Positions 17,401 to 55,200 of a stretch of 64,000 bases of DNA are shown piece after piece (within the stretch, counting starts at the first letter, position 1; the number at the start of each line of letters is the position of its first letter). The notes under the pieces are model-generated. The model saw nothing but the letters and a program-made list of their open reading frames with translations. It did not search any database and was not told the origin of the DNA. Position numbers and translations under genes: made by a program. The stretch spans positions 71,459-135,458 of IMG/VR virus record IMGVR_UViG_3300024255_001563. One strand, written 5' to 3'. Source of the stretch: a virus.

Positions 17401-17862
17401 TTATGCGTCTTCTGTGAAATCGTCGTCATCGGTTCCAACTAATGTGTTGTCGTCGCCAGCTTCTTCAACTTGTGCTGCACCGTCTGCTACAGATGTACTA
17501 AAGTTCCATGCTACACTTACACCATCATAAGCATTACTACCTGTTGCACTTGGTGCTGACAATGTAGCTTTACGTCCAGAAATTTTACTTACTGTGTATG
17601 TTTCTGCATCGTCCATTTTGAATGAAATAGCCATTTCGCCTTCTGCTAATGCTGCTGGTAGTTTACCAGTTGTTAGCGTACAAGTAAATAAGCCTGGTGT
17701 TTCAATTTCTTCACATACAAATTTCTTTGATGCTTTTTGCTTTACAATGTAACCTTCTTTAACTGCTGTGCCGTTATGAAAATTTACTTTAATTTCGTTG
17801 CCGCCTGCTGTAGGTCCTACGCCTGCTACACCGAATAATCGTTTGTTTAGTGGTCTTCCCAT
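17401..17862 (-). CDS. Probable head-associated/decoration protein, 153 aa
   Basis: Directly downstream of capsid gene, own late promoter, strong AGGAG; function inferred from position only. Confidence 0.65.
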   Translation of the reverse strand: MGRPLNKRLFGVAGVGPTAGGNEIKVNFHNGTAVKEGYIVKQKASKKFVCEEIETPGLFTCTLTTGKLPAALAEGEMAISFKMDDAETYTVSKISGRKATLSAPSATGSNAYDGVSVAWNFSTSVADGAAQVEEAGDDNTLVGTDDDDFTEDA

Positions 17863-17958
17863 TTTTTTTCTCCTATAAAAAGTAGTCCTATGCCCGTTCT
17901 ATGAGCTACGCTGCGGGTACAGCATAAGTCCGCCTTGCGGCACACTATCTGACATATG

Positions 17959-27567: not shown

Positions 27568-28431
27568 ATGCAGGAAATTCAACCAAGTGGGTCTAACCCA
27601 TTAAGAAAATACTTTCGGCAACCTAAATTATATTTAGAATTGCCTAGTAAGGGTAGATTCTACCCAGAAGGCTCAATAGATATGCCTGAAAATGGAGAAT
27701 TGCCAGTATTTCCCATGACAGCAAAAGACGAACTAACTATGAAAACTCCTGATGCACTAATGAACGGGCAAGCTACTGTTGATCTTGTAAAAAGCTGTGT
27801 GCCAAATATTATTGATCCTTGGAAAATGCCTTCAATTGATCTTGATACTATTTTAATAGCTATTAGAATAGCTACATTTGGACCAGAACTATCTGTTACA
27901 CAAGTAATACCAGGATTAAATGAAGAAAGGTCCTTTAGTGTAGATTTAAGATATACTTTAGAAAAGTTTTCAAGAATAAATTATGTTAACGAAATTGAAG
28001 TTGACAATATGTTAGTAAAACTATCTCCACTAACGTATAGACAATTTACTGATAGTAGTATGAAAACATTTGAAGAGCAAAGAATATTTGCATCTGTAAA
28101 CAGTAAAACTATGACAGAAGTTGAAAAAATGGAAAAGTTTAGTACTAGTTTCCGTAAGCTTACTGAACTAACAGTAGGCATGATGATAGACAGTATAGAA
28201 TCTATCACAGTTGACGACAACATAGTAGATAACAAAACATTTATAAAAGAATTTATTGATAATGCTGATAAGAACGTATTTTCCACTGTTTTAGATCATT
28301 TAGAAGCACAAAAAAATTCATTTGTAATGGAACCATTACAAGTTACGTTTAATGAAGAAGATGTAGCTAACGGTGCACCTAAAAATATGGAAATTCCTCT
28401 ATCTTTTGATCAATCAAATTTTTTCGTGTAA
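27568..28431 (+). CDS. gp26: Baseplate hub assembly protein / tail assembly chaperone, gp26-like, 287 aa
   Basis: YLELPSKG.FY, PMTAKDE, DLDTILIAIR.ATFG, terminal NFF. Confidence 0.75.
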   Translation: MQEIQPSGSNPLRKYFRQPKLYLELPSKGRFYPEGSIDMPENGELPVFPMTAKDELTMKTPDALMNGQATVDLVKSCVPNIIDPWKMPSIDLDTILIAIRIATFGPELSVTQVIPGLNEERSFSVDLRYTLEKFSRINYVNEIEVDNMLVKLSPLTYRQFTDSSMKTFEEQRIFASVNSKTMTEVEKMEKFSTSFRKLTELTVGMMIDSIESITVDDNIVDNKTFIKEFIDNADKNVFSTVLDHLEAQKNSFVMEPLQVTFNEEDVANGAPKNMEIPLSFDQSNFFV

Positions 28432-28448
28432 GTATTATATCTACAGGT

Positions 28449-28655
28449 ATGGAAGAAATTCTAGATCTAATGAAACAAATGGAATTAGATCAAAAAAATC
28501 TAAAACATGAACTATATAAATTGTGTTGGTATATGCGGGGAAGTGTTTCTGCAGACGAAGCTTTCACTATGTGTATAGAAGATAGAGAAATTATCGGTAA
28601 AATAATAGCAGAAAATTTAGAAACAACTAAAAATACAAATTTACCGTTTTATTAA
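28449..28655 (+). CDS. gp51-like hub assembly peptide, 68 aa; probably also (or only) made as a -1 frameshift extension of 27568-28431
   Basis: LCWYMRG.VS..EA.TM..EDREII pattern; frame is open back to the T6C slippery site. Confidence 0.7.
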   Translation: MEEILDLMKQMELDQKNLKHELYKLCWYMRGSVSADEAFTMCIEDREIIGKIIAENLETTKNTNLPFY

Positions 28656-29125
28656 CTATATTTTTTTAGTATTGCTTTAGCTAATGCTACTTTTTCACTA
28701 TCTGACATTTTACTTACAACATTAACAACATTAGCCGGAACTTTTGGCTTGTTAGATACTTTATTTCCTTTTGGAGTAACCTTTGGTGCAGCGGATTTTT
28801 TAGGAGTCGGTGCTTTGAATGGAAGCGCCATTGCTTTTTGAGCAACATCTCTAAATACCTTCTTTAGATTTGGCTTTGCTGTAGTATCTAGTTTACTAGT
28901 GTCAACTTTTTTATAAGAAAGAAAATCTATAATATCTTGCCAAACTACTTGATTTAGTTTTTTGCCTTGTGTTCCCATATATCCTGCAAATTCACTGTTT
29001 AATTTATCAGCAGTTGCAATCATATCTTTTTTGCCAGCTTTCTGAGCTTTACTCATAGTACGAGCTCTTTTAGTTAAAGGGATAAACTCTACTAATTCTT
29101 CATTTAAGATATCATTTATTTTCAT
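28652..29125 (-). CDS. Basic Lys-rich protein, 157 aa, possible internal head protein
   Basis: TATAAATA upstream; MKINDILNE N-terminus; K/P/A-rich tail. Confidence 0.7.
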   Translation of the reverse strand: MKINDILNEELVEFIPLTKRARTMSKAQKAGKKDMIATADKLNSEFAGYMGTQGKKLNQVVWQDIIDFLSYKKVDTSKLDTTAKPNLKKVFRDVAQKAMALPFKAPTPKKSAAPKVTPKGNKVSNKPKVPANVVNVVSKMSDSEKVALAKAILKKYS

Positions 29126-29149: not shown

Positions 29150-29157
29150 TATTTATA
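29150..29157 (-). promoter_or_regulatory. Late promoter TATAAATA
   Basis: Exact T4 late consensus 24 nt upstream of ATG 29125. Confidence 0.65.
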
Positions 29158-29260
29158 TATCTACTCCGTAGATATAAGTTTTCGCTAACGCTCAAACTAC
29201 AAACTTTTTTCTTAATACATAATTTATATAGAAAGCATTAATACGAATGTATTAATGTTT
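29156..29260. repeat. Cluster of three inverted repeats in an AT-rich tract
   Basis: TATATCTAC-tcc-GTAGATATA (29156-29176); AGTTT..AAACT (29177-29198); CATTAATAC-gaat-GTATTAATG (29236-29257). Confidence 0.8.
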
Positions 29261-29261
29261 A

Positions 29262-29637
29262 AGTTTCATGTAGATTGTTTCAGTCAGACGGAACCTGTTA
29301 CGGTCCCATCTAATCTCAAAATGCGCTTCATGTGAGTCTGCACCAGCCGAGACATTGGAAGTAGGTAATTGTTTATACACAAAGTACAATGGGCTCTGAC
29401 CTTTCCCAACCTACGTCGACATCGCTGTTTCCAGCTACCTCTCGCTTCGTTCCTATTGCTAAAGAGTTTTTATGTACTGTGTTTGTGTTTTTCGACTGCC
29501 AACAAAACAATCTATATCAACCAGTGAGCCCAATTTGTTTGGTGGCTTCCTACCTCTGGGTAGTCGATCAATATGTTACGTGTGCTTCTATACGAGAGCT
29601 TTTTCCACAGCGGTATTAGTAAACTGGCCCGCTAACC
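29262..29637 (-). ncRNA. Candidate ~370-nt structured noncoding RNA immediately 3' of the GIY-YIG gene
   Basis: Noncoding, visibly GC-richer than its flanks, at least 7 stems, GAAA tetraloop, G-U pairs giving minus-strand polarity, long-range complementarities. Confidence 0.6.
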
Positions 29638-30087
29638 TTAGGTGTTGGAATGTTTTGCCTGTATGTGATGTTCTAGCAATGCCTGTTTGAGTTTGTCTGA
29701 TCCGCCTACTCTAACATTAATGATTCCGTTATAGTAATCATCTGTTTCAAGTACTCGCCTGTCAAACTGTTCTCTTGCCTCTATGTAGGACATTTCGCCC
29801 CTGCCCTTACAAAGATATAATATTTCTCTTGTAAAGTGTTCTTCGCCTAGTGATGCTACGTCTGCGTTTAGTCTGTCTGAACTACCGTAGTATGTTCTCC
29901 AGTCGCTTTCTTTGTAGCCTCGTCTTTTATTTTTTTTGCCTTTTAGAGGTGGCTTAGTGGTTTTAAATTTTGCTAGTTTCTTGCCTACGTATTTTTGGCC
30001 TGTAGTGGTATTTGTAATAAGGTAAACAAAGCCTTCATACTCGTCTGGTATTGTGTCAATTGTTTCACCTTGGTAAGTCCACTGCAT
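29638..30087 (-). CDS. Short stand-alone GIY-YIG family nuclease, 149 aa
   Basis: GFVYLITN..TGQKYVGKK, YYGSS, F.REIL, catalytic-type E (YIEAREQF) and N (YYNG); no C-terminal DNA-binding domain. Confidence 0.85.
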   Translation of the reverse strand: MQWTYQGETIDTIPDEYEGFVYLITNTTTGQKYVGKKLAKFKTTKPPLKGKKNKRRGYKESDWRTYYGSSDRLNADVASLGEEHFTREILYLCKGRGEMSYIEAREQFDRRVLETDDYYNGIINVRVGGSDKLKQALLEHHIQAKHSNT

Positions 30088-30110
30088 GAGTATACTTACC
30101 AGTGCCTAAT

Positions 30111-30320
30111 TTATTTGCCTTCTTTTTTGGTTTCTTTATTTGAATTATATGTAAGATGAATTTCATCCATGCGATCTTTAGAAAGGTTACGGATTTCTCG
30201 TAACCATTTTCGTGCTTCTCGATGAGTTCTAACTGACTTTCTTGACTCAAATTTTTCATTTGCTCTAAAATATTCCATGTATGCTTTTACAAGCTTGTCA
30301 TGGGTATCGTCGTCTATCAT
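30111..30320 (-). CDS. Small basic helical protein, 69 aa
   Basis: ATGA overlap with gp46 stop; ARKWLREIR pattern. Confidence 0.7.
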   Translation of the reverse strand: MIDDDTHDKLVKAYMEYFRANEKFESRKSVRTHREARKWLREIRNLSKDRMDEIHLTYNSNKETKKEGK

Positions 30321-32089
30321 TCTACAATTTCAATATCATTTTCGTAACTTGTAAATCCATTTTCTTTTACTACTTTCATTACGTGATTGACTCTTCCAAC
30401 AAGTTCGTCCTTGTGTGAGATAAGGTAAACATTCTTGTCGCCTTCCCTGCCCATCTTCTTAAGAACACTTAGTGAATTTTCAACACCAGCAGTATCCATA
30501 CCACTGTCAATAAGTTCATCAATAAACAACAAGTTAATCTTTTGATATAGACTTTCCCAAACATCACGGAATGCAAAGCTCATACCAAGTATAAGTCTGT
30601 TACGTTCACCACGTGACAAGTTATCAAAGTCTAAATCTTGACCAAGTTGCGTAATTTCAACAGCAAGATCGTTTTGGAACACAACTTGATGCGGCAATCC
30701 TAGTTTATCTAAGTAATATGTAAGTCTATTGTTTAAGTATGCTAAGTTTTGATCGATAATCTTCTTACGAATAAAGCTATCTTTGTTAGTAAGTAGTTTT
30801 AGTAAAAAGTCTTGATGTTCCTTATAATCAGTAAGCTCATTAACTGGTGTCCAGTCAATTTCTTGCATTGCTGTATTATTTAATTCATCAATTTGTGTTT
30901 GATACGGATCGACATCGTCCTGTTTGTTAGCAAGTGCCTGTTTTAAACTATCAACGTTTTGCCTGTGATCATATGCTTCTTTGACAGTGTCATAAAACAC
31001 ATTAGGCTTACCGTTGATGTCACCAATATCTTCAAGACTCTTTGTAACATCGACTACCTTAACAGAAACTTCAGACTGATATGCAATTGCATCAGCAAGT
31101 TCTTTATCTTTACGAGCTGCAATCTCTGCTTTTTTATCTGCGTGAAGTTCTTGACCACACGTATAACAAGTTGCATCTTCTAGATCTGCAATATCTTTAT
31201 TTGCTTTTTCAATACTCTTATCAGCACGTTGTAGTGCAGGCTCAAGTGTGCTTAATTCTTTTCTTAAAGAAGTTATTTTGTTGTTATGTTCAGACCAATT
31301 TGATAATTTTTCGTGTGCTTCTAATTCTGTGTTAATATCTAATTTCTCTAATTCAGTAATACCTAACTGTAACTTATCACAGTCTTGATCCTTCTTAGAA
31401 AGCCAAGCACGCTGTGTACGACTTAAACTATCAATAGTTGTTTGTATTTTTTCGTTTGCACTTTGAATAGCATTAATTTTTAATGTTTCTTCGGTGATTG
31501 CATCTTTAGTTTGCTTAGTTTGCTCTTTAAGTGCATCGGCTTTCTCACTAAGGATAGTAATGCCAAGCAGTTGTTCGATGATAGCACGTTGATCATTTTG
31601 ACGCATACTTAGAAACGGCTCAGTATAAGTGTTTAGTGCAACAATGTGCTTAAACATATCGTGAGACATGTCTAATAAGTCGTTGATGAACTCTTGCGTC
31701 TTTCGACTGTCGCCTTGCGACTCATCTATCATTTCTTGTTCTTGATCGTTCACATAAAACTTTAATAAGTTAGGTCCACGTCCACGTTCAACACGATAAT
31801 CAACATTGTTCTTTTCAAAGTGTAGCGTAACAAGCATACCTTTTGAGTTTGTTTTGTTAATTAAGTTGTTGGCTCTAATGTTTGTAAGAGCTTTTCCGTA
31901 CAATGCATAGCTAAGTGCGTTAATGATAGTAGTTTTGCCAGTACCGTTACGTGATCCGCTATCGTCACCACCTTGATCTAAGTTTTCACCTAACACAAGT
32001 GTTAGTTGCTCACGGTCAAAGTCCACTGCTTGAGTCTGATTACCCACACTCATAAAGTTACGTACTGTTAGATCTTTAATTTTTATCAT
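30317..32089 (-). CDS. gp46: Recombination nuclease ATPase subunit (gp46/SbcC/Rad50-like)
   Basis: NFMSVGN, Walker A NGTGKTT, zinc hook CYTC, LSRGE signature, Walker B LFIDE, ISH. Confidence 0.95.
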   Translation of the reverse strand: MIKIKDLTVRNFMSVGNQTQAVDFDREQLTLVLGENLDQGGDDSGSRNGTGKTTIINALSYALYGKALTNIRANNLINKTNSKGMLVTLHFEKNNVDYRVERGRGPNLLKFYVNDQEQEMIDESQGDSRKTQEFINDLLDMSHDMFKHIVALNTYTEPFLSMRQNDQRAIIEQLLGITILSEKADALKEQTKQTKDAITEETLKINAIQSANEKIQTTIDSLSRTQRAWLSKKDQDCDKLQLGITELEKLDINTELEAHEKLSNWSEHNNKITSLRKELSTLEPALQRADKSIEKANKDIADLEDATCYTCGQELHADKKAEIAARKDKELADAIAYQSEVSVKVVDVTKSLEDIGDINGKPNVFYDTVKEAYDHRQNVDSLKQALANKQDDVDPYQTQIDELNNTAMQEIDWTPVNELTDYKEHQDFLLKLLTNKDSFIRKKIIDQNLAYLNNRLTYYLDKLGLPHQVVFQNDLAVEITQLGQDLDFDNLSRGERNRLILGMSFAFRDVWESLYQKINLLFIDELIDSGMDTAGVENSLSVLKKMGREGDKNVYLISHKDELVGRVNHVMKVVKENGFTSYENDIEIVE

Positions 32090-33096
32090 AGTTCGTTGTA
32101 AATGTCCATTAGCGTCTTCTTATTGAAGTTGTCTGAGTCGATTGCAGCAATTTCACCAGCAACAATTTGATCGACACTTTCAAATTGTTGGATATCTAGT
32201 TGTGTACTAATTTCCTCTAGTGATTTCTGAGGAATTAAACTAATTTCACGACACTTGTACTGATTAATGAATGTTTCTTTGATGAAACTAGCTTCTTCAT
32301 AACTAATAGGCAAGTCTAAGTTAACACGTAGATACATATTAGGTTTGATAAATGAATCTGCTTCATCAATTAACTGACTTAGCTTAACAGTTCGATACTT
32401 AGGACAATCGGCCCAGTCAATATAAACTGGCGCCTTGTCGTTTTCTCTATCAAGAATCATCATACCACGTGCATCATCCCACGCATCAGCATAATTGTGC
32501 GGAAATGCATTACCTAAGTAATGTACTACACCTTGTTGCTGACGTTTGTGGAAGTGTCCACTAAAAACATAAGACTGATTAGCAAAGTCTTCTGCTCTAA
32601 GCTCTCCGTGGTCGGGCATTTGCACCATAGCGTTCATATAGAAGCTAGGCAGTTCAAAATGCCCAAATACATACTTACTTTTTAGCTTGCGTAGCTTTTT
32701 CCACTCGTCGCCTACAAGCCAAGGTACAATAGTTACGTCTTCAATTGTAGTAATTTCGTCTACAAACGTAATACCTGGGATGTGTTTTGCAAATGCTGTA
32801 CTGTTAACGTCACGTTTGTCTTTATAATACAAGTCGTGGTTACCATCAAAGAAGAAAAACTGCTCAAATGCAGCACCTAGCTTTTCCATACTACGGATTG
32901 TTGCATCCATAGTAGTAAGATTAAGGCTATTTCTGTTATGATGCCAGTCTCCGCAGAAAATACCAGTCTCGCAACCGGCAGCTTTTGCTTGTTCTATGTA
33001 CCAATCAATAAAGTCTTCACAGTCTTGATTGTGTACTTTACTATTGCCTTTTAGACCAAAGTGGATGTCAGTAAAGACTGCTGCTTTCTTAAACAA
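32086..33096 (-). CDS. gp47: Recombination nuclease subunit (gp47/SbcD/Mre11-like)
   Basis: DIHFG, GDWHH, GNHD, GHFH metallophosphoesterase motifs; start is TTG. Confidence 0.95.
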   Translation of the reverse strand: MFKKAAVFTDIHFGLKGNSKVHNQDCEDFIDWYIEQAKAAGCETGIFCGDWHHNRNSLNLTTMDATIRSMEKLGAAFEQFFFFDGNHDLYYKDKRDVNSTAFAKHIPGITFVDEITTIEDVTIVPWLVGDEWKKLRKLKSKYVFGHFELPSFYMNAMVQMPDHGELRAEDFANQSYVFSGHFHKRQQQGVVHYLGNAFPHNYADAWDDARGMMILDRENDKAPVYIDWADCPKYRTVKLSQLIDEADSFIKPNMYLRVNLDLPISYEEASFIKETFINQYKCREISLIPQKSLEEISTQLDIQQFESVDQIVAGEIAAIDSDNFNKKTLMDIYNEL

Positions 33097-33123
33097 ATTT
33101 AGATTCCTCTATTATACCGTATC

Positions 33124-33152
33124 ATTATAGCAAGATTATTAACAGGTGTCAA
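33124..33152 (-). promoter_or_regulatory. Consensus sigma70 promoter TTGACA-17-TATAAT for gp47-gp46 operon
   Basis: -35 at 33147-33152, -10 at 33124-33129. Confidence 0.85.
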
Positions 33153-33156
33153 CCAT

Positions 33157-33981
33157 TTATTTTTTTCGTTCAGCGTCTCTTTTAACAGAAGCTTCCCATT
33201 CGCCGGCATGCTGGCGTGTGTATGAAGGATTTAAGTCATTCATTTCTAAAATATCGTCTCTAATGTTCTGATTACGCTTTTCTAAGTTGATAACACGTAC
33301 AAAACTGTTAGTAACTGCTGCTGTATAATATGCAAATGGATTATTTGACTTTGATTCGTCAAACTGCAAACCAATTTGCGAAAGTTGCAGTATTGCTTGC
33401 CCTTTCATCTCGTCATTGTAAGTGTATCCACGTACATTGCCTCTTGTAGCATAACGATCAACAAGCTTCATCCACATTCGAGCAAGTTCATTGGTTGCTC
33501 GAGCATGTTTTAAACTAAAATTACCATTTTCCATGCCACCTTCCCAATGACTTTTACCAACTAAAACTAATTCGCCTTCATCATTAAATTTATAATGGTT
33601 AAAAGGAGGAAAATTTAGTTTTACTTTAGTGTCTGCTATAGTCTTTGGAGTTTTTTTACGTCCAGGCTCTTCCGGAATATGATCAAAAGTCATAATTCGA
33701 AAGATTAATTCTTCTTTTGTAATAGTTTTGTAATCAACTTCACATTCAGCTTGCTTTACTTTTTCGCCTGCTTGTTTACGACGAGCATATTCTGCATCGC
33801 CTAACCTTTTTGCTTTATTTCGTTTAGCTTCTGCAACAGTTCTGATATTAACTTTTTCAATATCAGGCAAAATAATGTCATACTGATTGTATTCTGGCTC
33901 TACAAAACTACAAAATTGTGATTTTGATATGTGTATCTGTTTTAACAAGTCTTTATTGTTAAGATAGTTTACTTTCCTCAT
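33157..33981 (-). CDS. gp55: Late-transcription sigma factor, gp55-like, 274 aa
   Basis: NYLNNKDL, GYTYNDEM, FDESKSNNPFAYYT; sits upstream of gp47/gp46 as in T4-like phages. Confidence 0.85.
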   Translation of the reverse strand: MRKVNYLNNKDLLKQIHISKSQFCSFVEPEYNQYDIILPDIEKVNIRTVAEAKRNKAKRLGDAEYARRKQAGEKVKQAECEVDYKTITKEELIFRIMTFDHIPEEPGRKKTPKTIADTKVKLNFPPFNHYKFNDEGELVLVGKSHWEGGMENGNFSLKHARATNELARMWMKLVDRYATRGNVRGYTYNDEMKGQAILQLSQIGLQFDESKSNNPFAYYTAAVTNSFVRVINLEKRNQNIRDDILEMNDLNPSYTRQHAGEWEASVKRDAERKK

Positions 33982-42700: not shown

Positions 42701-43251
42701 GTTTAAACCAAATTAAGTCACTTACAGACGAAATTATATATCATCCAGTTAAGTACAAAGTACTATTTGGATCAAATGCGGAAGAAGATTTGCAAGCTAC
42801 ATTTAAAGTTGTAAAAAATAAAGACAAAGTTTTAAACAACAACGACATAAAGACAAGAGTAATTACAGCAATTAATCAATTTTTTGCATTAGAAAATTGG
42901 GATTTTGGCGAAACATTTTATTTCTCAGAACTTGCAAATTATGTAATGTACAAATTATCGCCTGACTTATCAACATTTATAATAGTTCCAAATCAAGGCG
43001 ATCAAGGTTTTGGAAGTCTATTTGAAATAAAATCAGAAAGCAATGAAATTTTTATTAGCGGAGCGTCCGTGGATAATATTGAAATAATTGATGCGGTTAC
43101 TGCGTCAAAGCTTAAAGCAGATAGTAATATAGTAACAGAAGTGTCGTCGGCAAATGTAGGAATTCAAAGTTCTGCGTTGGACGAAACAGCTACAAAAGTT
43201 AGTCCAACACAAAATGTAATTACTAATATTAATAGAGGAAATACTTACTAA
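39760..43251 (+). CDS. gp6: Baseplate wedge protein gp6-like, 1163 aa
   Basis: DFDNLR..M..YL, DLIAY, ENYLELAERRESVLRLARLLSYNP, FSDGIFG.LP, QNRMVT.EDY. Confidence 0.9.
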   Translation: MSSSDRQNRLLLSEDWKRVYQSFRNADFKSYDFDNLRRTMVQYLRENYPEDFNDYTESSEYLALIDLIAYLGQNIAFRIDLNARENYLELAERRESVLRLARLLSYNPKRNQAANGLLKLQSVRTSEEVYDSNNINLQGQTIVWNDPSNSEWYEQFIKILNLSLPVNNTFGRSNKNEIINGITTEQYRFNSVNNDVPIFSFNKVIDGRSLQFEITSTDISADAVLEEAPFPGNKFAFIFKDDGKGITSPNTGFFSHFRQGTLDQGVFTVNSPSTNQAISVEALDINDSDVWLYGLDSLGNESELWTKVEALQGNNIIYNSLSKKERNIYSVLTRVDDRISLMFSDGIFGNLPKGSFRVYYRTSQNDRTIVTPRDLSNVSISISYISRSGKTETLRLIYNLQYTVDNSAESESTDSIRFNAPSTYYTQNRMVTGEDYQLAPLGISQNIVKSKSVNRTSSGISRYFDLIDATGKYSKTTLYGNDGVLYKEYSDLLVNFAFQTKTDVEGVILNSILPVLSNKKVRNYYFDKFPRILTGDLEITWNQETTETNLSTGYFKNKEGAALKLGSFTSSILSLLKQGTLIKFIAPTGSHFNKDLDIVSGNPSIIGDTTYKWVKLISVNGTGFEIRDDNTGAVYLNDEIPTGAILSEIKPALPNNLIASVKQQVIDQIFAYKTFGLRFDQTASEWRIVTENNLSIGSEFSTGKSGDTTNQQLDASWILLFETDGERYSVTYRGMRYVFESDKEIKFYYDPTEKIYDSNSGKIIKDLISVLSVNYQPDSTSAFTKDYNWEIVDIYRDVEGYVDSKKIEISFFDADEDGIVDDADLFEEIASPSVNTLNKYVIFKRIKSTDGVEDFNYLDNANKEVIILSSKSEVRPFSEYSNGQVFYYIDNDIFEVLDQSILKLNISADYKARLGRTDLKFRYVHSASANERIDPSASNIIDMYLLERNYDTSYRNWLLNKSTTKPLPPSSDQMHISYAPSLNQIKSLTDEIIYHPVKYKVLFGSNAEEDLQATFKVVKNKDKVLNNNDIKTRVITAINQFFALENWDFGETFYFSELANYVMYKLSPDLSTFIIVPNQGDQGFGSLFEIKSESNEIFISGASVDNIEIIDAVTASKLKADSNIVTEVSSANVGIQSSALDETATKVSPTQNVITNINRGNTY

Positions 43252-46200
43252 TGGCTCATAACGATAATCAAAAAGAATTTCCAATTCCGGACGGTAACTC
43301 GAATAAAAGAGAAACTGCTAGACATTTACCTAAGTACTTTAGAACAGAAAAAAATCAAAAGTTTTTACAATCTACATTAGATCAATTATTACAGCCAGGA
43401 ACTGCTGAAAAAACTAATTCTTTTGTTGGAAGAAAAACAGCTAAATCTTTTTCTCTTAATGATACTTATTTAGACGAAGTATCAGACGATAGAGCTAATT
43501 ATCAATTAGAGCCTGTAAGCGTTATTAAAGATCAGAATAATAATGTAACGTATTATCAAGAATACAGAGATTATATTAATCAGATTGCAAACTTTGGTGG
43601 CGTTAATAATAATCATAGTAGAAATACTAAACAAGAATTTTATACAATTGATCCACATATTGACTGGGATAAGTTTACTAATTTTAGAAATTACTATTGG
43701 CTTCCGAATGGTCCTCAAGCAGTAGATATTCCTGGCGAACAAAAAGAAATTGCAAGTACTTACACTGTAGAATTACAGTCGGCATTGGGCGATTATTCCT
43801 ACGTATTCAGTCCAGACGGGTTAACTAACAATCCAACATTAAAATTATACAGAGGTGTAAAGTATAGGTTTGAAATTACAACTCCCGGAGTTCCATTAAC
43901 TTTTAGAACAAAACGAACATTAGACGATGAATTTTTATTAGATGAAGGAATAACGGCGCAAGAAGTTGAAAGCGGCGTTATAGAATTAACATTAGGAACA
44001 GAATCCCCGGATGAATTGTTTTATGTAGCTAGTAATGATATTAATATTGGCGGCCTGATTAGAGTTGCAAACCAAGAAGATGCCTCGTTTATCGATGTTA
44101 CTAGCGAAATACTAAACAAAAAAGCATATACTACTAGAGACGGCTGGGCGCTAACTAACGGATTAAAGATTAAATTTGCTGGCGAAACCATCCCTTCGAC
44201 ATATGCAGAAGGCGAATGGTACGTAGAAGGTATAGGCGATAAAATTAACCTAGTTTCAAGTACAGACGTTGACGTATCTTTTCCGGTCGGAATTGATTTA
44301 ACTGTTCCGTTTGATGATATTGATGGTGAAGGTTTTGACGGATTGCCGTTCTCTCAAGCTATTGGATATCCTAAAGATAAAGACTATATTCTTATTAACC
44401 GTGCTAGTGTTGATGGTAATTTTTGGGCAAGATACAATAGATGGTTCCATAAAGATGTTATCGACTTATCTTCTCGAGTCAACGGAGTTTCGGTTAACTT
44501 AGATCAAACACAGCGAGCTAGCCGTCCTATTATTGAATTTGATGCAGGCTTAAAATTATATAACTTTGGTACAAAAAATAAATCTAGTGTCGATCTTATA
44601 GATAATTTTACATCAGACGTTTTTAGTACTATTGAAGGCGGCCTTGGATATAATGTTGACGGAATACAACTATCTCAAGGCATGCGAGTATTATTTTTAA
44701 ATGATCCTGATCCTCTTGTAAAAGGTAGAGTCTTTGAAGTAACCTTTATTAATTTTAAAGGTTCTGGCGAAACAGGACAAATTAGTTTAGTAGAGACTGA
44801 TGATAGTATTCCTCAGTCTGGAGAAAATGTATTAGTAATAAGAGGCAACGAAAACGGCGGCAAAATATGGTATTTTGATGGAGAAATCTGGAATATTGCA
44901 CAAGAAAAAACTTCAGTAAACCAACCTCCGATATTTGATGTTTTTGATAAAGACGACGAAAGCTTTTCAAATACAGAAAAATATATTGCAAGCTCATTTA
45001 GAGGAACTAAGATTTTTGGGTATAAAGAAAATCAATTAACAACAGATTCTGAATTGGGATTTGGTATTTCTTATAGGAGTATCAGTAACGTAGGTGATAT
45101 TGTTTTTGATTTTAATTATAACACAGATGCGTTTAATTATCAAGATAATGATCAAATTACTACTATTCCGATCAACAAAGGCTTTTTAAGAAAGTATTAT
45201 AACAATAATACATTTGAATCTGTAGGTATTTACACTAAAGCTCATAGGATGAGTGAACAAAAAGTTATTCTACAGTATGTTAACGACAGAACAAGATTAA
45301 CATATCCTATTAATTGTTATAACCAAAGTTCTTATTTAGATGACTTAACAGTAGCAGTTTATGTTAACAATATAAGACAGAAAGAAAATGTTGACTTTGT
45401 ATTAGAAAATAATGCAGATAAATTTAAACATGTAAAGTTTAATAATACTGTTCCAGTTGATTCGACAATTATTATTAAATGTGCTTCGTCTAAACCTAAA
45501 AATAAAAACGGCTATTACGAAATTGCTTCTAATTTAGAAAAAAACCCGTTGAATGACGACATTGAATCATTAACGTTAGGTGAAATCAGTGAACATGTTG
45601 CAACAATAGTTGACAGTTTAATAGATGAAATTGGTGATGAGTTTACTAGTACAAACTTTAGAGATATTAGTAATTCGTCTAAGTACGGCAAAAAGTTTTT
45701 AAAACATAGTTCGCCGCTAAACTTATCAATGTATAGTTTATTAGATAAAGACTCTAATCTTATAAAATCTATTAGATATGCTAAAAAAGAATATTCCAAA
45801 TTTAAAAGAGAATTTTTAGAAATTGCAGAAGGATTAGAATTTAATGGATCTAATAAACAACATGTTGATGAAATTATTAAGGAATTAACAAAAAGTAAAA
45901 CATCTTCAATGCCATTTTATTTTAGCGATATGATTCCTTATGGCACAGCAATTAAGACTAGGATCATAGTAGAAGACCCTGATGCTAGATTCTTTGCCTT
46001 AAATAGACAATTTACTTTAGATACATTAAGCACACAAGCAGTAACAGTTTACTTAAATAATACCCAGCTTTTACACGAAAAAGACTATATCTTTAATAGT
46101 CAAGGTTTTATCGAAATTACTGCAACAAAGAGCTTTCAAGACATAATCGAAATAAACGAGTACGATACAACTAATGGATCGTTTATACCTCCAACTCCGA

Positions 46201-49200
46201 CAAAATTAGGATTATATCCGTTACATCAACCTGAACAGTTTGTTGACAATTCTTACAGCACTCCGGTAACGTTAATTAAAGGACACGATGGAAGCATTGT
46301 AAGAGCGTTTAATGACTATAGAGATGAGCTGATTCTAGAATTAGAAAAGAGAATTTTTAATAATATTAAAGTTAAATATGATCAGACACTGTTTAACATA
46401 CATAATTACTTACCGGGACTAAATCGTAATACAGGGTTTAGTAGACAAGAAGTTTACACTCCGATGATTAGTGACTTTTTACAATGGATGACACTTGTTG
46501 ACACAGATTATACTATAAACAGTTATTACGATAGGCAAAATAGTTTCACATTTAATTATTCTAAATTATCAGATAAAAACGGCGACATGTTACCGGGTTG
46601 GTGGAAAGGTGCATTTAGACATTACTTTGACACTATTACACCTCACTTAACTCCTTGGACAATGCTAGGTTATACTATAAAACCTACATGGTGGGAAGAC
46701 CAATATGGCCCGGCACCTTACACTAAAAATAATTATCTTTTATGGGAAGATTTAGAAAAGGGCATTATTAGAGAGCCAGGAAAAGGTTTTGTAATCAATC
46801 CGCTTTATGCTCGTCCTGGATTAACAACGTTTATACCTGTTGACAAAAATGGCAATTTGTTAGGACCTTCAGATTGTAACATTCCTAAGAAGTTTAACAC
46901 AGTTAATCTTAACGATGGATTTGTATTTGGAGATTCGGCTCCTGTTGAAGAAGCTTGGAGAAATAGTTCTGAGTTTCCATTTGCATTATTAACTAGCTTG
47001 GCAATAAATAATGCACCGTTATTACTAGCTACTGGATACGATAGATCTAGACAAGTTCGAAATCAGTTAGGGCATATAGTTTATTCTGAAACAGATACTT
47101 ACATAAAATTACAAGATATTGTTACTTTCAGTGATGCACAAGACTCTCAGTTAATACAAACTTCAGGTGTTGTAAATTATGTGCAAGGATATATGGCTTC
47201 TACACTATCAGATAATTTTTATAATTATCAAACAGCATTAACGTCGATTCAAAATAATCTAGCATTTAAAGTAGGCGGCTTTACTGATAAAAGTAAGTTT
47301 AAATTAATACTTGATAGTAGAACTCCGTTAAACGACGGTAATGTATTCATTCCTGAAGAAAACTATCAAATTTTCTTAAGAACTAGCTCTCCATTAAAGA
47401 CAATTAACTACAGTGGTGTTATTATCGAATTAAGTGCCCAGGGATTTGTAATTAGAGGTTACGATAGAGAAATACCTGCATTTACTTACTATCCTTCGTA
47501 CCAGTCATCTAACGATATAAGCACAAATGTTGGCGGAGTTTCAGAATCGTTTGTGAGATGGGAAGCAAATAGAACGTATTCAAAAGATACTATAGTTGAA
47601 GGTGCAGCAGGAGTTTACTACAGGGCTACGTCTACCTTTACTTCAGTTAATCAAATTGACACTAAGAACTTAGTAAAACTTCCTAAACTACCGGTAACAG
47701 GCGGAATTGATGCAATATTTAAAAGCAAGTTTAATAAATCACAAACACTAAGTTTGCAATATGGAAGTACACTACGTACTGTACAAGAAGTAATTGATTT
47801 TTTATTGGGATATGAAGCTTGGTTAAAAGATCAAGGATTTAGATTTGAGTATTTTGACGGCAATGAGCAGATCATTTCAGACTGGAAAGCATCTGCTAAA
47901 GAATTTATGTTTTGGGTTACACATAAATGGGGCGAAGGCGCATTAATCTCGCTCAGTCCGGCAGCAGATCAAGTGTATTTTGAAACAGAATATTCGATAG
48001 TTGATAGCGTAACTGATAATTTTTATGGATATAGCTTACTTAAAGCAGACGGTAAATCATTAACACAAGACCTTATTAAAATTAATCGTATAGAAGATAA
48101 CGTTTTTAAACTAGAGCCTGCTAGTGCAACAGATGGAATTTATGCTATTAAGCTTCCTGTTGTACAAAAAGAGCATGTTGTATTAATTGACAATTTATCA
48201 GTATTTAATGATATTGTTTATCAGCCAGAAACAGGATACAGGCAAGACAGAATTAAAATATTTGGATACCGCACAGGCGACTGGAACGGTAGTTTAAATA
48301 TTCCTGGATTTATATATTCGGAAGTTAACATAAGTGACTGGGAGCCTTGGAAAGATTACAAAGTAGGCGATATAGTAAAATACAAAGAATTTTATTATAC
48401 TGCTGATAAACAAGTACCTGGAGAAGAATTCTTTAATTTCTATAGTTGGAAACGTCTAGACGATGTTCCATCTAGCAAACTACAGCCAAATTTTGATTAT
48501 AAAGCTACACAGTTTACAGATTTTTATGATCTAGACACTGACAATTTTGATGTCGAGCAGCAACAGCTTGCACAACATTTAATTGGTTATCAAAAGCGCC
48601 AGTATTTAGAAAATATTGTTAATGACGAAGTTAGTGCGTATAAATTTTATCAAGGAATGATTAAAGAAAAAGGGTCTAAAAATAGTCTTGATAAATTATT
48701 TGATGTACTAAGCGAGACAGATTCTGATAGCCTTGATTTTTATGAAGAGTGGGCAATTAAACAAGGTCAATACGGATCAGCCGAAGGCTTTGATGAAGTT
48801 GAATTTAAATTAGACGAGCAAAAGTTTAGGTTAAACCCGCAACCGATAAAATTAACAAATTTAGATAATCTAGAGGGATTAACATACGGAATTAAAGACT
48901 ACGAAGTATTTAAAAAACCTAGCAATTATTCTACAGATTTATTTCCGACACTAGATACTTATAGCCAGTTTACACGTAGTCCCGGATTTGTTAATCTTGA
49001 CGATACAAAATATATACTATCTAATTATGATGACTTACTAACATTAAACATAGATACAACATTAAAAGGCGAGTATGTTTGGGTAGGATCTAGTTTAAAT
49101 TCTTGGAATGTTTATCAATATGATAAAATAGATACAACTTTAATTGGGGTTCAAACACTTCCTGAAAAAGTAACTGATACAACATCAGCTTATGAATTAA

Positions 49201-52200
49201 AATTAACTTTAAATAATTCTCCTAGTGTCGACGTTGGAGAAATTATCGGAGTATATGATGTAATTACAGAGACAGTAAGTGCCAACTCTGTAACTACAAT
49301 TCAGGAACAAAACAGTTTTAGTGGTTTCTTTAAAGTTACTAAAAAGGTATTAAACATTATATATGTTGAATCAGATGATCAATATCCTGAGGTAATTGAC
49401 TGTATTGGAATTATTACTAAGTTTGACTCTGTTAAAGTAGCAAATTATAAAGAAGCAAATGAGTTTGCACAGTCGGGCATAATCAAAGACTCGTTGATTT
49501 GGGTTGAAAACAATAATCAAAATTGGAAAGTTCTTAAAAACACTCAGCCATACAACTTACTGCAAAAAATAGAAGGCGATACTTCTGAAATTAATGACGA
49601 CTTTTCTAGATCTATTGCAGTTAATGATAGAAACAGTATAATCTCAATCGCATCACCAAACGCAGGCAATGACGGCAAAATATCAATATACAATAGAGGC
49701 GGAAATAATCAAGACTATCAGTTTTCGCAATTTATTGAACCAAATATAGAAGTTGCAAACTTTGGAAAGCAATTTGGGTTAGGACAAGGCTTTTCGTTAG
49801 ACGGAAAATATTTACTAGTAGGTGCACCAAGTGCAGCAAATGTAAAATCAAGATTTAAGGGTCCTTGGGACGAAAATACAGATTATCAAAATGGTGATAT
49901 TGTAAAATATGAAGGCCTATTATGGGAAATAATAGTAGACATTCAGGGTGCTGCTTCAGCACAAGAATTTGGAAGTTTTGGATCGATTATTGAAATTTTG
50001 CAAAAAAATAATATTTTTGCAGCAGAAGCATCATTTAAAAACATTGTTACTGGTAATTATCCGTTTAGTGACGTTGAAACTGATCATGTTTTAATTAGAG
50101 CACCTAGAGATCAATATAATGCAACAGGTACAGGAGATACTGTATTTTTTGATTGGTATTTACAAACTACTGCAAATCAGGATCAAGATGTTTTAGAAGA
50201 CAGACAGCCGTTTGACGGAGCTATTCCGCAAATAAATGAAACATTCTTAGAATCAGGATTAACAATTCAGAAAAAGGTCGACGTTGTTCTTTATATTGAC
50301 GTCATATCAGCAATTCCAGAAATTGGCGATCAAGTTGAAGCAGAAAATGTATTTGGGTATGTTAATTATGTGTTTGTAGATGCAGGTGCAGCAACAATTT
50401 ATATTGAAAGAACATCGGGGCAGTGGAGTACTACTGATAATATTTTCTTAGAAAGTGGTGAGTTTGTTGGACAATATGTTAAACAACTGCCCGACGAACA
50501 AATTGATGTAACAGCAGATTTAGGCGGTTACTGGTATTTTGATTTAGGAACAACTATTACAGTAGGTGACACAAGAACTGACGAAGGAAGATCATTAGCA
50601 GTTTATAATATAGTTCCTCAAGGAAGTGTAGATCTAGAGGCAGCTGGCGGCAACATCTACGATTTAAATAACAGTGTAACTAATATTGGCGAAAATTCTA
50701 TTAACAGTTATATTAGAACGTTAACATATCAAGGTACACCAGGCCCTGGAGGAAGTTTAAATATTATTCCTAGTGATCTGTTTATAGTTAGAGCACCAAA
50801 AGATTTAACAGATAAGTTAGTTGTAGGTGACGAAGTAGGATTAGAAATTTTAAGATTTCCAAAATACAGTGATGATAGCTATGTAGATATAACTCCTACA
50901 GGACTCTCATATACAGACACTAACAAGAAACATACATTGTATGATTTATGGACTGGTTACATTGATTTTGACCTAGACGAGTTAACGCCTCCGGATCAAG
51001 GCGGACAGCCTTACGAACCAAGAGTTGGCCAATTTGTTCGAGAAAGAACTCCTAATCCAGGCGGAACAGCTAGAGTAGTATTTTTCCAAAAGTTTAACAA
51101 CAGCCGTGGCAGAGTATATGTTACTGATGTACAAGGAGACTGGGGAATCGGTAACGACGGCAGATATCTTGAAATGATTGGCACCGAATCTGATACGTTT
51201 ACGAGTCAAACATTAGGCGACATTAGAGCAACTGCGTTAGGTAGTGAAGATTTAAATATTGGTAGTCTTTGTGTATTTCAGTTAGATGCTGAAATTGAAG
51301 ATGTTCCGCCAGCAAGTACTATCATAGGAGCAGAATATCTAATATACAAAGATTTTGAAATTTTAGGATTACCGCTTCTTCCTAATTTTCCAAGTTCAGA
51401 TAATTTTGATTATAAGCAAGTTTTTAATATTAAAACTGATCCTAATGGTAGCGGTAACGGGCTATCTAACTTTGGTTATTTTGCAGTATACGAAAAAGAA
51501 AATGTTTCGTCATTTAATGTTGTAAATTCATTTATTGTTCCAGACGAACTTGATAATTTAAGAATTGGTTCTACAATTAAAATTGCAAAACGTAACGATC
51601 TATATAAAGCATTTATTGGATGTGCAGGCAACGGAACGACTAACAACCCTGGAAGAATTTACTTTGTAAATAACGGTACAGACGATGAAGGTATAGTTTA
51701 TAATTGGGAACTTGCGAAAGACAAGCGTTATAAAGGAGAATTTAATTCTAATAAAAACTTTTTTGTAAATGATTATGTTTATTATGAAGGTTATTTTTAC
51801 GAAGCGTTAACTAACATTGCTGGTGACGGATCTACATTTATTCCAACTGAATGGCAATTAATCAATAGTGATCAAATTAGAAGTATTGATTACTTAGGAT
51901 ATGTGCCAAATGATACAAACATATTACCTGAAGATTTTAATTATAAAGGATTCTTTACTAAACGCTCTAACTACATTGTTGACGAAATTATACAATACCA
52001 AAACGGAAATTTTTACAAAGCACTAAGAAATATTCCTTTAAATTATAACGGATTTATTGATAATAATGGTGTAATAGAAGTTCCGTCAGCAGATTGGGAG
52101 TTAATAAACTTTACTCTTGGAGGCGATCAAGACTTAAGACTTGACTCTACAAACTTAGTTAAATTTGCAGAAAAGTTTGATGTAAGCGATAACGCAGAAG

Positions 52201-55200
52201 TGTTAGTTGTAACTGCTGAATTTAATAACGGTATAAGAAAAGTTGTTATTTATAGAAATGTAAATGATAATTACCAAAAAACACAGGAACTTGTATCTCC
52301 ATTAGTTAACGATCTTAACATAGAGTTTGGCAAGTCTTTGAGCATTAGCCAAGATGGAAATTTAATTGCAATAGGCGCCCCTGGCGCAGATGACTCTACA
52401 TTAGGCGATAACATTGGCGCAGTTTATATATACGAACAAAAAGACGGAACCTTTGAGCTATCTCAGACACTAACAAGCGCAACGCCTGCAGAAGGTGAAG
52501 CATTTGGAAGTACTATTGATTTTGATGGTAGAACATTATACGTTAGTGCGTATAACGCATCGAGCGATGATGATACTACATTTGACAATACGTCAACAAC
52601 GTTTGATAATTTATTTACAGCATTTAAAAATAAAATTAAAATTAACGGTGCGGTTTATGTTTATGACAGGATTGATAATTCGTTAATATTTGGACAAGCA
52701 ATTGATTATCACACTTACTTAGATCGAGACAGTGTAGCAGAAATTGACAGATTTGGTAGAAATATTCTTGCTAAAAATAATCACATTTATGTTGCAGTTC
52801 CTGAGTATACTAACTCTAGCGGAAATACTGGAATTTTATTAGATTACAGACGTCCAGGCACTGAAAAATTATGGAGTATCCATAGAGAAAACCAACCAAC
52901 TGTTGATTTAGAAAAAATTAAAAGTATTTTCTTATATGATTCTAAGAAAAATGAACTTGTACAGTATCTAGATTATATTGATCCTGCACAAGGCAAAATT
53001 GCAGGTCCTGCAGATCAAGAAATTAGATATAAAACAACTGTAGATCCTGCTGTTTACACACTAGGAACTAGCAATTTAGTAGTAGACGAAACATTATCAT
53101 GGGGTCCTGAACAAAAAGGCAGAGTATGGTGGGATTTATCTAATGCAAAATTTTATGATGTATATCAAGGCAACTTAATATATAAAGCAAATAACTTTAA
53201 TACACTGTATCCTGGAGCATCAATAGATGTTTACGAATGGGTAGAAAGTAAATACACTCCTGAAGATTGGGACAAACTTTCTATCACTTCCCGAGGTGCA
53301 GCTGAAAACATCACAGGAACTACAAAATACGGAAGTGTATCATATAGTTCACGACGAGTATATGATCCTGTTGTAGGAAGTTTTACAACTTATTTTTATT
53401 ATTGGGTTAAGAATAAAACAACAGTTCCTGACATATTAGGAAGAAAACTATCAGTTAACGCTGTATCTAAGTTAATTGAAGATCCTAAGGGAGAACAATA
53501 TAAATTTATTTCTTTTGCTGATTCGTCTTCGTTTGTGTTACACAACTGTGGGAAGCTATTAAAAGATAGTGACATTGTTCTTAATATACAATACTGGACT
53601 ACTGGAAACAAGTATTCTAATATTCATAACCAATATCAAATTGTAACCGAAGGCCTGTCAACTAGTGTGCCTAACGATACTATTATTAATAAAGTTTTTG
53701 ACAGTTTAGTTGGATACGATTCTCAAGGCAGAAATGTTCCTGATGCTACATTGTCAGTAAGAGAAAAATATGGGATACTTAACAAACCAAGACAGTCAAT
53801 GTTTGTTAATAGATCAGAAGCATTAAAGCAGGTTATCGAACGTGTTAATTTAATATTCAAAGAAAATTTAATCATAGACGAAAAAGACACTTCGTTATTA
53901 TTTGATAATGATCCTGCTCCAAAAATTACATCAGGTAGATACGACACTGTTATTGACAATCATGTAGATTTACAATTTGTTAGTTCGGCAAGAGCACAAA
54001 CAGCAGAGTTAACTCCAATAGTTGAAAATGGTAGAATTGTTCGTGTAGATATTGCAAATCCTGGAAGAAGCTACAAAGTTGTTCCTACATACGAAATAAC
54101 AGGACAAGGCGCAGACGCTAAACTTGCAATATCGTTAAACGCATTGGGACAAATAGATAATGTTGCAGTTTTAAATCAAGGATATAACTATAACGAAAAT
54201 ACAGTGATATCTGTTAGACCAATCGCTGTATTAGTTAATTCAGACGAAACTGCAAACAGTCAGTGGGCGCTTTATCATAGAATTAGTAACGAATGGATAA
54301 GAGTTGCATCTCAAGCATATGACGTTAAGTCTTATTGGGATTACATTGATTGGTATGCCACAGATTATGATCAGTTTACTCAAGTAAATCATCTAATTGA
54401 CTTTACATATAATTTGCAAGGCTTAGACGCAAATAATGGCGATATCGTTAAGGTATTAAATGCTGGCGGCGAGGGCTGGATCTTATTAGAAAAAATTGAC
54501 GAGCAAGATACTATTGACTATACTGTAAATTATAAAACAGTTGGAAAACAAAATGGTACAATTAAATTAAAAGAAACATTGTATAGTTTTGATAATAGCT
54601 TAATTGGATTTGACAATCAAACGTTTGATACACAATTCTTTGATAAACAGCCTATTGCAGAAGTACGTATAATTTTAAAAGCACTAAAGGATAATATTTT
54701 TGTTGCAGACTTGGCAGACGAATTTAACAACCTATTCTTTGTTTGTTTGAGATATGTATTTACAGAACAAGGCTATGTTGATTGGGCGTTTAAAACTAGC
54801 TTCATAAAGGCACAACATAATGTTGGAGACCTACAACAAAAAGTAACGTTTAAAAATGACAATTTAACAAGTTTTGAGAATTATATTAACGAAGTAAAAC
54901 CATATAAGTCTAAGATTAGAGAATACGTGTCAACTTATTCTAAACTAGAAAACACTTCAAATATAATTTCTGACTTTGATAGTCCGCCGCGATTTAATAG
55001 TACTACAGGAGCAATTACAGCAACAGATGTTAAAGTTGTTAACGGGGTACTGTTTAATACAGGACAAACAGCAGTAATTGATCAATCTTGGTTAGCTAAT
55101 TTAACATATGAAGTAATTGAAATCAATATAAGTGATTCGGGAGAAGGATATGTATTTCCTCCATTAATTGAAATTGAAGGAGACGCAACGGCTAAAGTAT

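Follow-up and report, generated by a model that had tools for sequence, protein, structure and literature searches.

What does a conserved, heavily folded RNA do at the end of a phage recombination operon, and does it belong to the nuclease gene that it overlaps? The question is raised by a locus in a 64,000-nucleotide (nt) stretch of viral DNA (IMG/VR record IMGVR_UViG_3300024255_001563, positions 71,459 to 135,458; hereafter the window, in whose numbering all positions are given), where a small GIY-YIG nuclease gene is followed by a long noncoding gap on the minus strand. A first-pass annotation, made from the sequence alone, had proposed that the two form a nuclease-RNA system. We find that a ~390-nt RNA element with several pseudoknots is real, its transcription and function being predicted; that it carries two copies of a short repeat which change in step; and that it is probably not a guide of this nuclease. 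By analogy with ColE1 and T4, we read the locus, at roughly even odds (about 0.5), as an RNA-primed R-loop replication origin common to jumbo phages and to small phages without recognised replication genes. The replication origins of uncultured jumbo phages are unknown so far.

The RNA element and its twin repeat

The gap is the widest in the window, as had been noticed at first sight (513 nt between open reading frames (ORFs) of at least 80 amino acids (aa)), and the RNA motif is single-copy in the 200-kb record. Its single-sequence fold is no better than that of shuffles (z -0.89); the structure is seen in the relatives. A conserved element with insert-tolerant arms was found at 80 protein-first loci and several hundred RNA-first loci, and about 770 stored viral stretches fit one strict RNA pattern. 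Mutual information in 133 full-length non-redundant sequences (about 65 effective) recovered Watson-Crick covariation in stems P1 and P2 (Table 1), the 29574/29514 stem, the 29512/29494 hairpin, the stem of the GGAACGA loop and two pseudoknots. In the 3' core of 51 diverse sequences, 21 pairs are 97.7% paired, 9 of them with two-sided change, a level that none of 500 shuffles reaches and that lies above slid controls (29-49%). The region is thus conserved and covarying across phages. The RNA does not begin at the nuclease stop codon. Since the 5' strand of P1 is made of the nuclease's last codons, the start lies at about 29648, inside the gene; of the 70 type-A loci with the gene adjacent, 52 have this overlap unchanged. 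Shorter 5' variants, at least two of them, are joined to the same 3' core.

Several of the helices drawn from the single sequence hold in the 133 sequences: UAGCGG/CCGCUG, GUAGG/CCUAC and GCUG-GAAA-CAGC, the last of which is an insert-tolerant variable stem. The 12-bp terminal stem is retained in its inner 9 bp, the outer pairs being 62-77% paired, and the ACAGUACA/UGUAC pseudoknot in a 4-bp core that is 100% paired and covaries strongly. The UCGACU/AGUCGA stem (50-76% paired) and the pseudoknots UGGGCUC/GAGCCCA (53-92% paired, 14-17% gaps) and GCCAGU/ACUGGU (43-100% paired, most positions 43-62%) had to be given up; their segments pair elsewhere. The invariant 3' strand of the terminal hairpin has alternative partners in the core; the GGAACGA loop could pair, without covariation, with the invariant UUCC 29360-29357 or GUUCC 29294-29290.

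The first-pass annotation had not recognised the RNA family, and no Rfam family matches the element. Rfam gave no match at the locus or at 20 family loci, neither Rfam nor ARAGORN recognised a group I or group II intron, RNase P, tmRNA or tRNA, and a BLASTN search with the RNA as query found nothing in 50,697 phage records. Translational bypassing was rejected, no frame being conserved through the indels. Contigs often end here: 23 of 80 (L001-L080) break off no more than 420 nt from the stop codon of the nuclease gene and often share their end points, which is expected because the conserved core alternates with variable arms. Metatranscriptome contigs from eight runs cover the gene and the 5' two-thirds of the RNA at similar depth; their ends, strand and level are not readable, and DNA carry-over is possible. 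The repeat module is missing from seven of the eight.

The two repeat copies flank the terminal hairpin, about 49-67 nt apart across relatives. They were tested in both directions, copy-1 variants being selected with copy 2 free and then copy-2 variants with copy 1 free; chance pattern matches (about 18 of 40, then 9 of 30, 1 of 83 and 4 of 120) and partial loci without copy 1 were removed before counting. In 234 distinct non-redundant cores the copies are identical at the five variable positions in 234, 234, 233, 233 and 223 cases. Eight matched 5-mers occur (ATGAA 116, ATGAT 39, ATAAA 25, ATAAT 19, GTGAA 12, ATCAA 9, ATGAG 2, ACAAT 1), and the 11 mismatched cores are seven ATGAA/ATGAT, two ATGAG/ATGAA, one GTGAT/GTGAG and one apparently broken locus. 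Because some ATGAA cores came through a pattern fixing both copies to RTRA, it is the variant sets that carry evidential weight. The top covarying column for copy 1 is copy 2. Of the variable segment that might lie beside a conserved scaffold, for which the first-pass annotation had advised looking, this 5-6-nt self-matching repeat is all that varies in step; the 3' flank is variable and the RNA end is unmapped.

Neither the RNA nor the 250 nt after it holds a complementary partner that tracks the variant (for the common variant, 0 of 82), and no third direct or complementary copy follows the variant, the 11/11 match of GTGA being copy 1's own palindrome. Antiparallel pairing of the two copies through the CAUG palindrome was rejected, since it fails in the ATAA, ATCA and ACAA variants. 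The simplest cause of identity without a complementary partner would be base pairing between one copy and the complement of its twin, which would be the template DNA strand or an antisense product. Direct repeats at this spacing might instead be double-stranded DNA sites of a dimeric protein, an initiator of replication or of packaging, with a separate role for the RNA fold, and in the small phages terminase follows the locus after a few genes; but the spacing is unphased, variants reappear among relatives that are almost identical (the tree has 25-26 changes, a count inflated by recombination), and a protein could tolerate two sites that differ, whereas the copies hardly ever differ at positions 1-4. 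We hold such protein-read sites to be improbable.

The closest known RNA appears to be the Polynucleobacter-1 motif (RF01718), an orphan class described by Weinberg et al. 2010 (PMC2864571). The RF01718 model (gathering threshold 37 bits) gave no match at E<=10 at this locus, in any of 20 family loci or in any of 40 records; a 3'-core model of our RNA did not match the RF01718 loci, and one scan with a Polynucleobacter-1 pattern returned nothing. Five viral RF01718 loci (88-94 bits, 3 distinct sequences) were compared by inspection. All five stand in the same place, after gp46 and a GIY-YIG gene 52-56% identical to ours, and their 3' extension has the same layout: an upstream strand that pairs with a hairpin loop as GGG/CCC, a terminal hairpin followed by TGACTGAA, and GCGAAGC downstream. 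They also have twin repeats of their own that change in step (GTGTCAAGT twice; GGTCAAGT twice). The repeats lie outside the Rfam model, which is limited to 141 nt in the 5' part. Because synteny and 3' layout agree yet neither profile detects the other group, sequence comparison makes this RNA a diverged syntenic sister of Polynucleobacter-1 and not a member by score. A literature search, several supplements lying outside it, found no account of this RNA, its repeats, its function or a GIY-YIG ribonucleoprotein; a motif search in six supplementary files of PMC10690425, three large files left out, was negative.

The GIY-YIG nuclease, a usual and replaceable neighbour

The 149-aa product of the overlapping gene matches Pfam SegE_GIY-YIG (PF19835) with E 1e-35 and 122.9 bits (cut-off 25). 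Y22, Y33, G35, W63, Y66, S69, E103 and N120 are invariant across 99 nuclease sequences, with no invariant Arg among those listed; profile score and conserved Tyr, Tyr-Gly, Glu and Asn place the protein, by prediction, in the GIY-YIG superfamily as a SegE-type member. The best structural match of its AlphaFold model (pLDDT 96.5) is the I-TevI catalytic domain (Z 8.2, root-mean-square deviation 2.6, 82 aligned), further fold matches being a 5-hydroxymethylcytosine restriction nuclease, UvrC and T4 EndoII (Z 5.3); Foldseek returned no match at E<=0.001. The nuclease shares the GIY-YIG fold with I-TevI and T4 EndoII; I-TevI, however, has a DNA-binding domain, and this protein has none. The basic insert is a beta-hairpin in the model, so that the initial description of a bare catalytic domain with a basic insert is borne out. 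The family is large (816 phage records; 2,234 cluster representatives), and many records wrongly label it 'NAD synthetase'.

How closely the gene follows the RNA was assessed in 127 non-redundant RNA-first loci with at least 1.2 kb upstream. It adjoins the RNA upstream in 89, lies upstream with a gap in 11 and downstream in 6, and is lacking within 1.5 kb in 21. Among the records of these 21, one has the gene nearby, and none of the three complete ones, CheckV-complete small phages of ~30 kb, has a PF19835 gene at all. At L102 a Holliday-junction-resolvase-family gene occupies the nuclease's place, and at L135 a similar gene. In the other direction, the RNA model matched none of five whole genomes of cultured phages that carry the nuclease (Melnitz, S-SRM01, phiN3, V45v66, P-SSM4); the Melnitz nuclease is 66% identical, and just 148 nt lie behind its gene. 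A small CxxC..CxxC-like ORF often stands between nuclease and RNA (L084, L102, L105, L131, L134, L299).

These distributions bear on the proposal that the pair works like IscB or TnpB with their RNAs. Stated for this locus, the RNA would be the scaffold of a nuclease or nickase, copy 1 a very short guide and copy 2 its target in the locus's own DNA, the CTC versus TCT flanks would tell self from non-self, and the nick would start recombination-dependent or rolling-circle replication. Guide-target identity would account for the repeat rule and for its independence from protein changes; in fact, nucleases 95-97% identical go with different repeat variants, and no nuclease residue tracking the variant was found. 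The protein, with its basic beta-hairpin and no DNA-binding domain, is also kept when moved downstream, and it stands beside five of five RF01718 loci. Yet the reading is unsupported, because the gene is directly upstream in only 89 of 127 loci, three complete phages have the RNA without the gene, five phages have the nuclease without a match to the RNA model, and no variable guide flank is apparent beyond the 5-6-nt repeat. Replacement by resolvase-type genes and the wide spread of the family without the RNA count against it as well. Stand-alone GIY-YIG enzymes are not known to need RNA, T4 EndoII, one of the fold matches, being an example. OMEGA systems (IscB/omegaRNA, TnpB/reRNA) resemble the locus in that a compact nuclease gene overlaps a large structured RNA; here, however, the nuclease is GIY-YIG and not RuvC or HNH, linkage is not obligate, and there are no transposon ends. 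Guidance of this nuclease by the RNA is thus, in our judgement, rather unlikely.

DNA signals and a proposed RNA-primed origin

Hairpins of at least 6 bp were surveyed in the 170 nt after copy 2 at 183 loci. Downstream triloops are of GNA type on the RNA-like strand in 123 cases and on the template strand in 66, with 27 others, as against one GNA among 25 triloops inside the RNA. A template-strand hairpin begins the series, within 20 nt of copy 2 in 113 cases (TNC triloops pooled with three related tetraloops); a mini-hairpin follows, and then, 25-27 nt on, a top-strand GNA hairpin. GA-GCGNNAGC-GA or its compensated GTG..AAC form is present downstream in 142 of the 183 loci and ATAAATA in 107, and the AT content there is 64-80%. 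PMC13037366 describes GNA-type mini-hairpins as far more stable in DNA than in RNA and reports them from N4 promoters and from the sites at which G4 and RSF1010 are primed; G4 ori, RSF1010 ssiA and the N4 promoter share GCGNNAGC and C(GNA)G hairpins with this locus. Unlike those systems, the hairpins here are on both strands, 3' of an RNA gene and in double-stranded DNA phages. Their motifs mark them as putative single-strand priming or loading signals.

On the other side of the RNA, AGGC words are clustered over the nuclease gene and its leader. The gene has 11, where 2.5 are expected from codon usage, the highest of 177 genes; glycine codons after A are GGC in 71% of cases, against 29% in gp46, and the cluster is the densest 1-kb minus-strand bin of the record. 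Across 153 loci AGGC is 4-fold enriched upstream of the RNA. The cluster is tied to the position, whichever gene sits there: the replacement genes have 14 (L102) and 9 (L135), two nuclease genes downstream of the RNA have none, and those of four RNA-less phages 0-1. A suggested periodicity of 23 nt did not reach significance when loci were taken singly (p 0.32 in the window; below 0.05 in 1 of 19).

From the fold, the repeat rule, the strand-specific hairpin classes, the AGGC cluster, the distribution and the independence from the neighbouring gene, all of which are observed, we infer the following steps. RNA polymerase would read through the locus and the RNA would fold co-transcriptionally; one repeat copy, held by the folded core, would base-pair with the DNA complement of the other copy and nucleate a lasting RNA-DNA hybrid. 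Beyond copy 2 the AT-rich DNA would open, GNA and GNNA mini-hairpins would form on both separated strands and load helicase or primase, and the RNA, perhaps after trimming by RNase H, would prime DNA synthesis. The AGGC words may be bound by a factor that acts in initiation or loading, and the GIY-YIG gene may be a recombination or branch-processing neighbour of the gp47-gp46 operon. The first-pass annotation had mentioned a primer or origin RNA as a secondary idea; it is this idea that we now prefer, without the nuclease as the partner of the RNA.

In ColE1, an upstream G-run of RNA II pairs with a C-run of the template near the origin; here, by contrast, the anchor would be a mixed-sequence covarying repeat, no equivalent of the antisense RNA I was found, and the element is phage-borne. 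ColE1 replication needs no initiator protein according to PMC5043065, and the proposed likeness to its RNA II preprimer lies in a folded RNA of several hundred nt, no need of an initiator, a persistent hybrid and an opened strand for helicase loading (PMC5043065, PMC4555960). T4 oriF and oriG combine a transcript with an AT-rich unwinding element according to PMC3016281; with them and the oriE iterons the locus shares a T4-like phage, a putative transcript followed by AT-rich DNA, the vicinity of a strand switch and clustered upstream repeats. T4 origins need ~100 bp and no specific RNA fold in that account, whereas here the fold is conserved over 390 nt and the words are unphased and 4 nt long. 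The cause of the persistent origin R-loop is listed as an open question for both ColE1 (PMC5043065) and T4 (PMC3016281).

Several points weigh against an origin of this kind. R-loops at T4 origins form whatever the sequence (PMC3016281), and no repeat is required for a transcript to hybridise back to its template, so the need for the repeat is only inferred; a hybrid of 6 bp is also weak. The signs of a pairing direction are split: G/A occurs 93 times at position 6 and A/G never, which fits copy 1 on the complement of copy 2, and 8 of 11 position-5 mismatches are A/T, not wobble. The support from RNA libraries consists of contigs, without transcript ends or strand. Six loci, including L100, L146, L150 and L084, have fewer than four AGGC words upstream or none, and in 106 of 127 loci the nuclease is no more than 1.5 kb away, also where it has moved to the other side. 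An initiator could be hidden among the many small-phage ORFs that lack annotation; G015 has a weak AAA-like ORF just downstream. GC skew was rejected as origin evidence, since it follows the coding strand and gives no consistent signal in the small genomes.

Two further explanations have to be weighed. The RNA might control transcription: at copy 2, copy 1 would swap into the RNA-DNA hybrid, or polymerase would hop between the copies, and termination, pausing or release of a stable RNA would follow at the end of the gp55-gp47-gp46 operon. In its favour, no ordinary terminator was found there, the invariant 3' hairpin strand has alternative core partners, and the matched stretch of 7-8 nt comes close in length to the transcription hybrid, which spans ~10 nt according to PMC5043065. 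Such control, however, leaves unexplained the DNA-tuned hairpins on both strands, the AGGC cluster and the retention of the RNA alone in small phages, and no joint between the repeats was seen in the eight metatranscriptome runs (contigs only); it seems unlikely to us. The element might also be a ribozyme or template acting on its own DNA, its pseudoknotted core cutting or joining single-stranded DNA at copy 2 by the hairpin, or a polymerase jumping between the repeats, as on DRT2-type templates. A dense invariant core with several pseudoknots and a short guide-like pairing beside a DNA hairpin would fit this; but there is no Rfam ribozyme or intron match, a reverse transcriptase was found neither in the record itself, which is 57% complete, nor in the ORF sets of the three complete small phages, and a GAGCC/GGUUC resemblance to domain V of group II introns is lost in variants. 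We give it a slim chance.

The RNA is present in both jumbo T4-like and ~30-kb phages. The small group (G008, G015, G020, G022, G023; loci L327-L336) is siphovirus-like; its records, 29-32 kb long, come from tailed phages and encode terminase, portal, capsid, tape measure and methylases. All 98 ORFs of at least 70 aa in G008, G015 and G022 were compared with PHROGs; many were matchless, the others gave matches to virion proteins, terminase and methylases, and among them PHROGs identified no polymerase, helicase, primase, initiator, integrase or reverse transcriptase, searches for PolB and DnaB found no match in the small phages, and the ORFs of G020 and G023 were scanned in part. Nearly all genes run in the same direction as the RNA, which in G015, G022 and G023 comes after a terminator and a TAAATA word. 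Upstream of it lies a Cys-rich, Zn-finger-like protein of ~160 aa (L333:10979-11452 (-), L329:11115-11591), a candidate initiator, with no Pfam or PHROG assignment and no ESM Atlas match over 0.87. The TATAAATA word, which we take to be the T4-type late promoter consensus, occurs 4, 2 and 2 times in three small phages (0.6-0.7 expected) and in two not at all; its enrichment was rejected as proof of helper dependence.

Small phages of this kind would run the same origin with the replisome of a helper or of the host; from their gene content they are possible parasites of jumbo phages, and may borrow the nuclease in trans. We offer, as a tentative proposal with the odds against it, an RNA with its own short programmable anchor: one repeat invades the phage DNA at the other copy, opening and priming an origin (or cutting by a ribozyme or borrowed nuclease), and 30-kb tailed phages with virions of their own have captured this RNA origin and parasitise the replication of jumbo T4-like phages. 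If true, the orphan RNA class of 2010 would acquire a function and be extended by its conserved 3' half, and phage-on-phage replication parasitism would exist among abundant aquatic viruses. The natural compensatory variants of the 6-nt repeat are a ready genetic test of RNA-to-DNA anchoring.

Coordinates and genomic setting

The main features of the locus, including the RNA start inside the gene, the twin repeats, the downstream mini-hairpins and the AGGC cluster, which go beyond the first reading, are collected in Table 1.

Table 1. Positions of the features discussed, in window coordinates.
Feature	Position	Strand	Remark
Structured RNA motif, ~390 nt	29262..29648	-	Conservation and covariation; 3' boundary provisional
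P1, CCAACA 29648-29643 / UGUUGG 29504-29499	29499..29648	-	98-100% paired; two-sided changes at 4 of 6 pairs
P2 hairpin, UAGCGG/CCGCUG	29608..29634	-	98-100% paired; 2 pairs with two-sided change
Stem around variable domain, AUAUUGA 29574-29568 / UUGAUAU 29520-29514	29514..29574	-	Covariation
CUCU/AGAG stem with invariant GGAACGA loop (29453-29447)	29439..29466	-	Alignment
Variable stem	29423..29436	-	4-bp hairpin here (GCUG-GAAA-CAGC), up to long AT-rich inserts in relatives
Pseudoknotted core, UACA 29476-73/UGUA 29388-85; GAC 29417-15/GUC 29400-398	29361..29476	-	Covariation
Pseudoknotted core, further pairs, GUAGG 29414-10/CCUAC 29365-61; GGG 29407-05/CCC 29393-91		-	
Terminal hairpin	29287..29310	-	3' strand almost invariant; 5' strand changes one-sidedly
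Repeat copy 1	29327..29333	-	ACATGAA after invariant CTC
Repeat copy 2	29265..29271	-	ACATGAA after invariant TCT
AT-rich hairpin just past copy 2	29238..29255	+	C(GAAT)G here; mostly C(GAA)G or C(GTA)G on template strand in relatives
GA-GCGTTAGC-GA	29182..29193	-	A GCGNNAGC DNA mini-hairpin motif
9-bp hairpin	29156..29176	-	C(GGA)G triloop
TATAAATA word	29150..29157	-	Ahead of variable downstream gene
Cluster of 13 AGGC words	29657..30120	-	Over nuclease gene and leader
SegE-type GIY-YIG nuclease gene	29638..30087	-	149 aa; catalytic domain and basic beta-hairpin; usual, replaceable neighbour of the RNA
Upstream operon	30111..33981	-	gp55-like late sigma, gp47, gp46, 69-aa ORF

The source record is a virus of 200,843 nt, estimated to be 57% complete, in which profile searches identified T4-like portal, baseplate, gp55, gp47 and gp46 genes and a family B polymerase. 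On the minus strand the order is gp55, gp47, gp46, the 69-aa ORF, the nuclease ORF, the 513-nt gap and a variable 157-aa ORF, and the RNA locus lies 4.5 kb from the main strand switch of the record. The slot gene 3' of the RNA (28652-29125 (-)), behind the TATAAATA word, is variable and has a homologue in some relatives only; beyond it a gp26-like ORF and then a 68-aa ORF (27568-28655 (+)) form a pair that is kept 3' of the RNA in many loci.

A scan of genome contigs gave six matches, four of them chance. The other two are family members on phage-like contigs (L202, L206) binned in one Crocinitomicaceae metagenome-assembled genome, which is probably mis-binning and gives no host evidence. Elsewhere in the window, a freshwater-2 RNA motif (RF02980, 66.9 bits; 17860-17944 (-)) borders the second-largest gap (461 nt), and an ORF of 5,266 aa occupies 43251-59051 (+), that is, 114709-130509 of the record.
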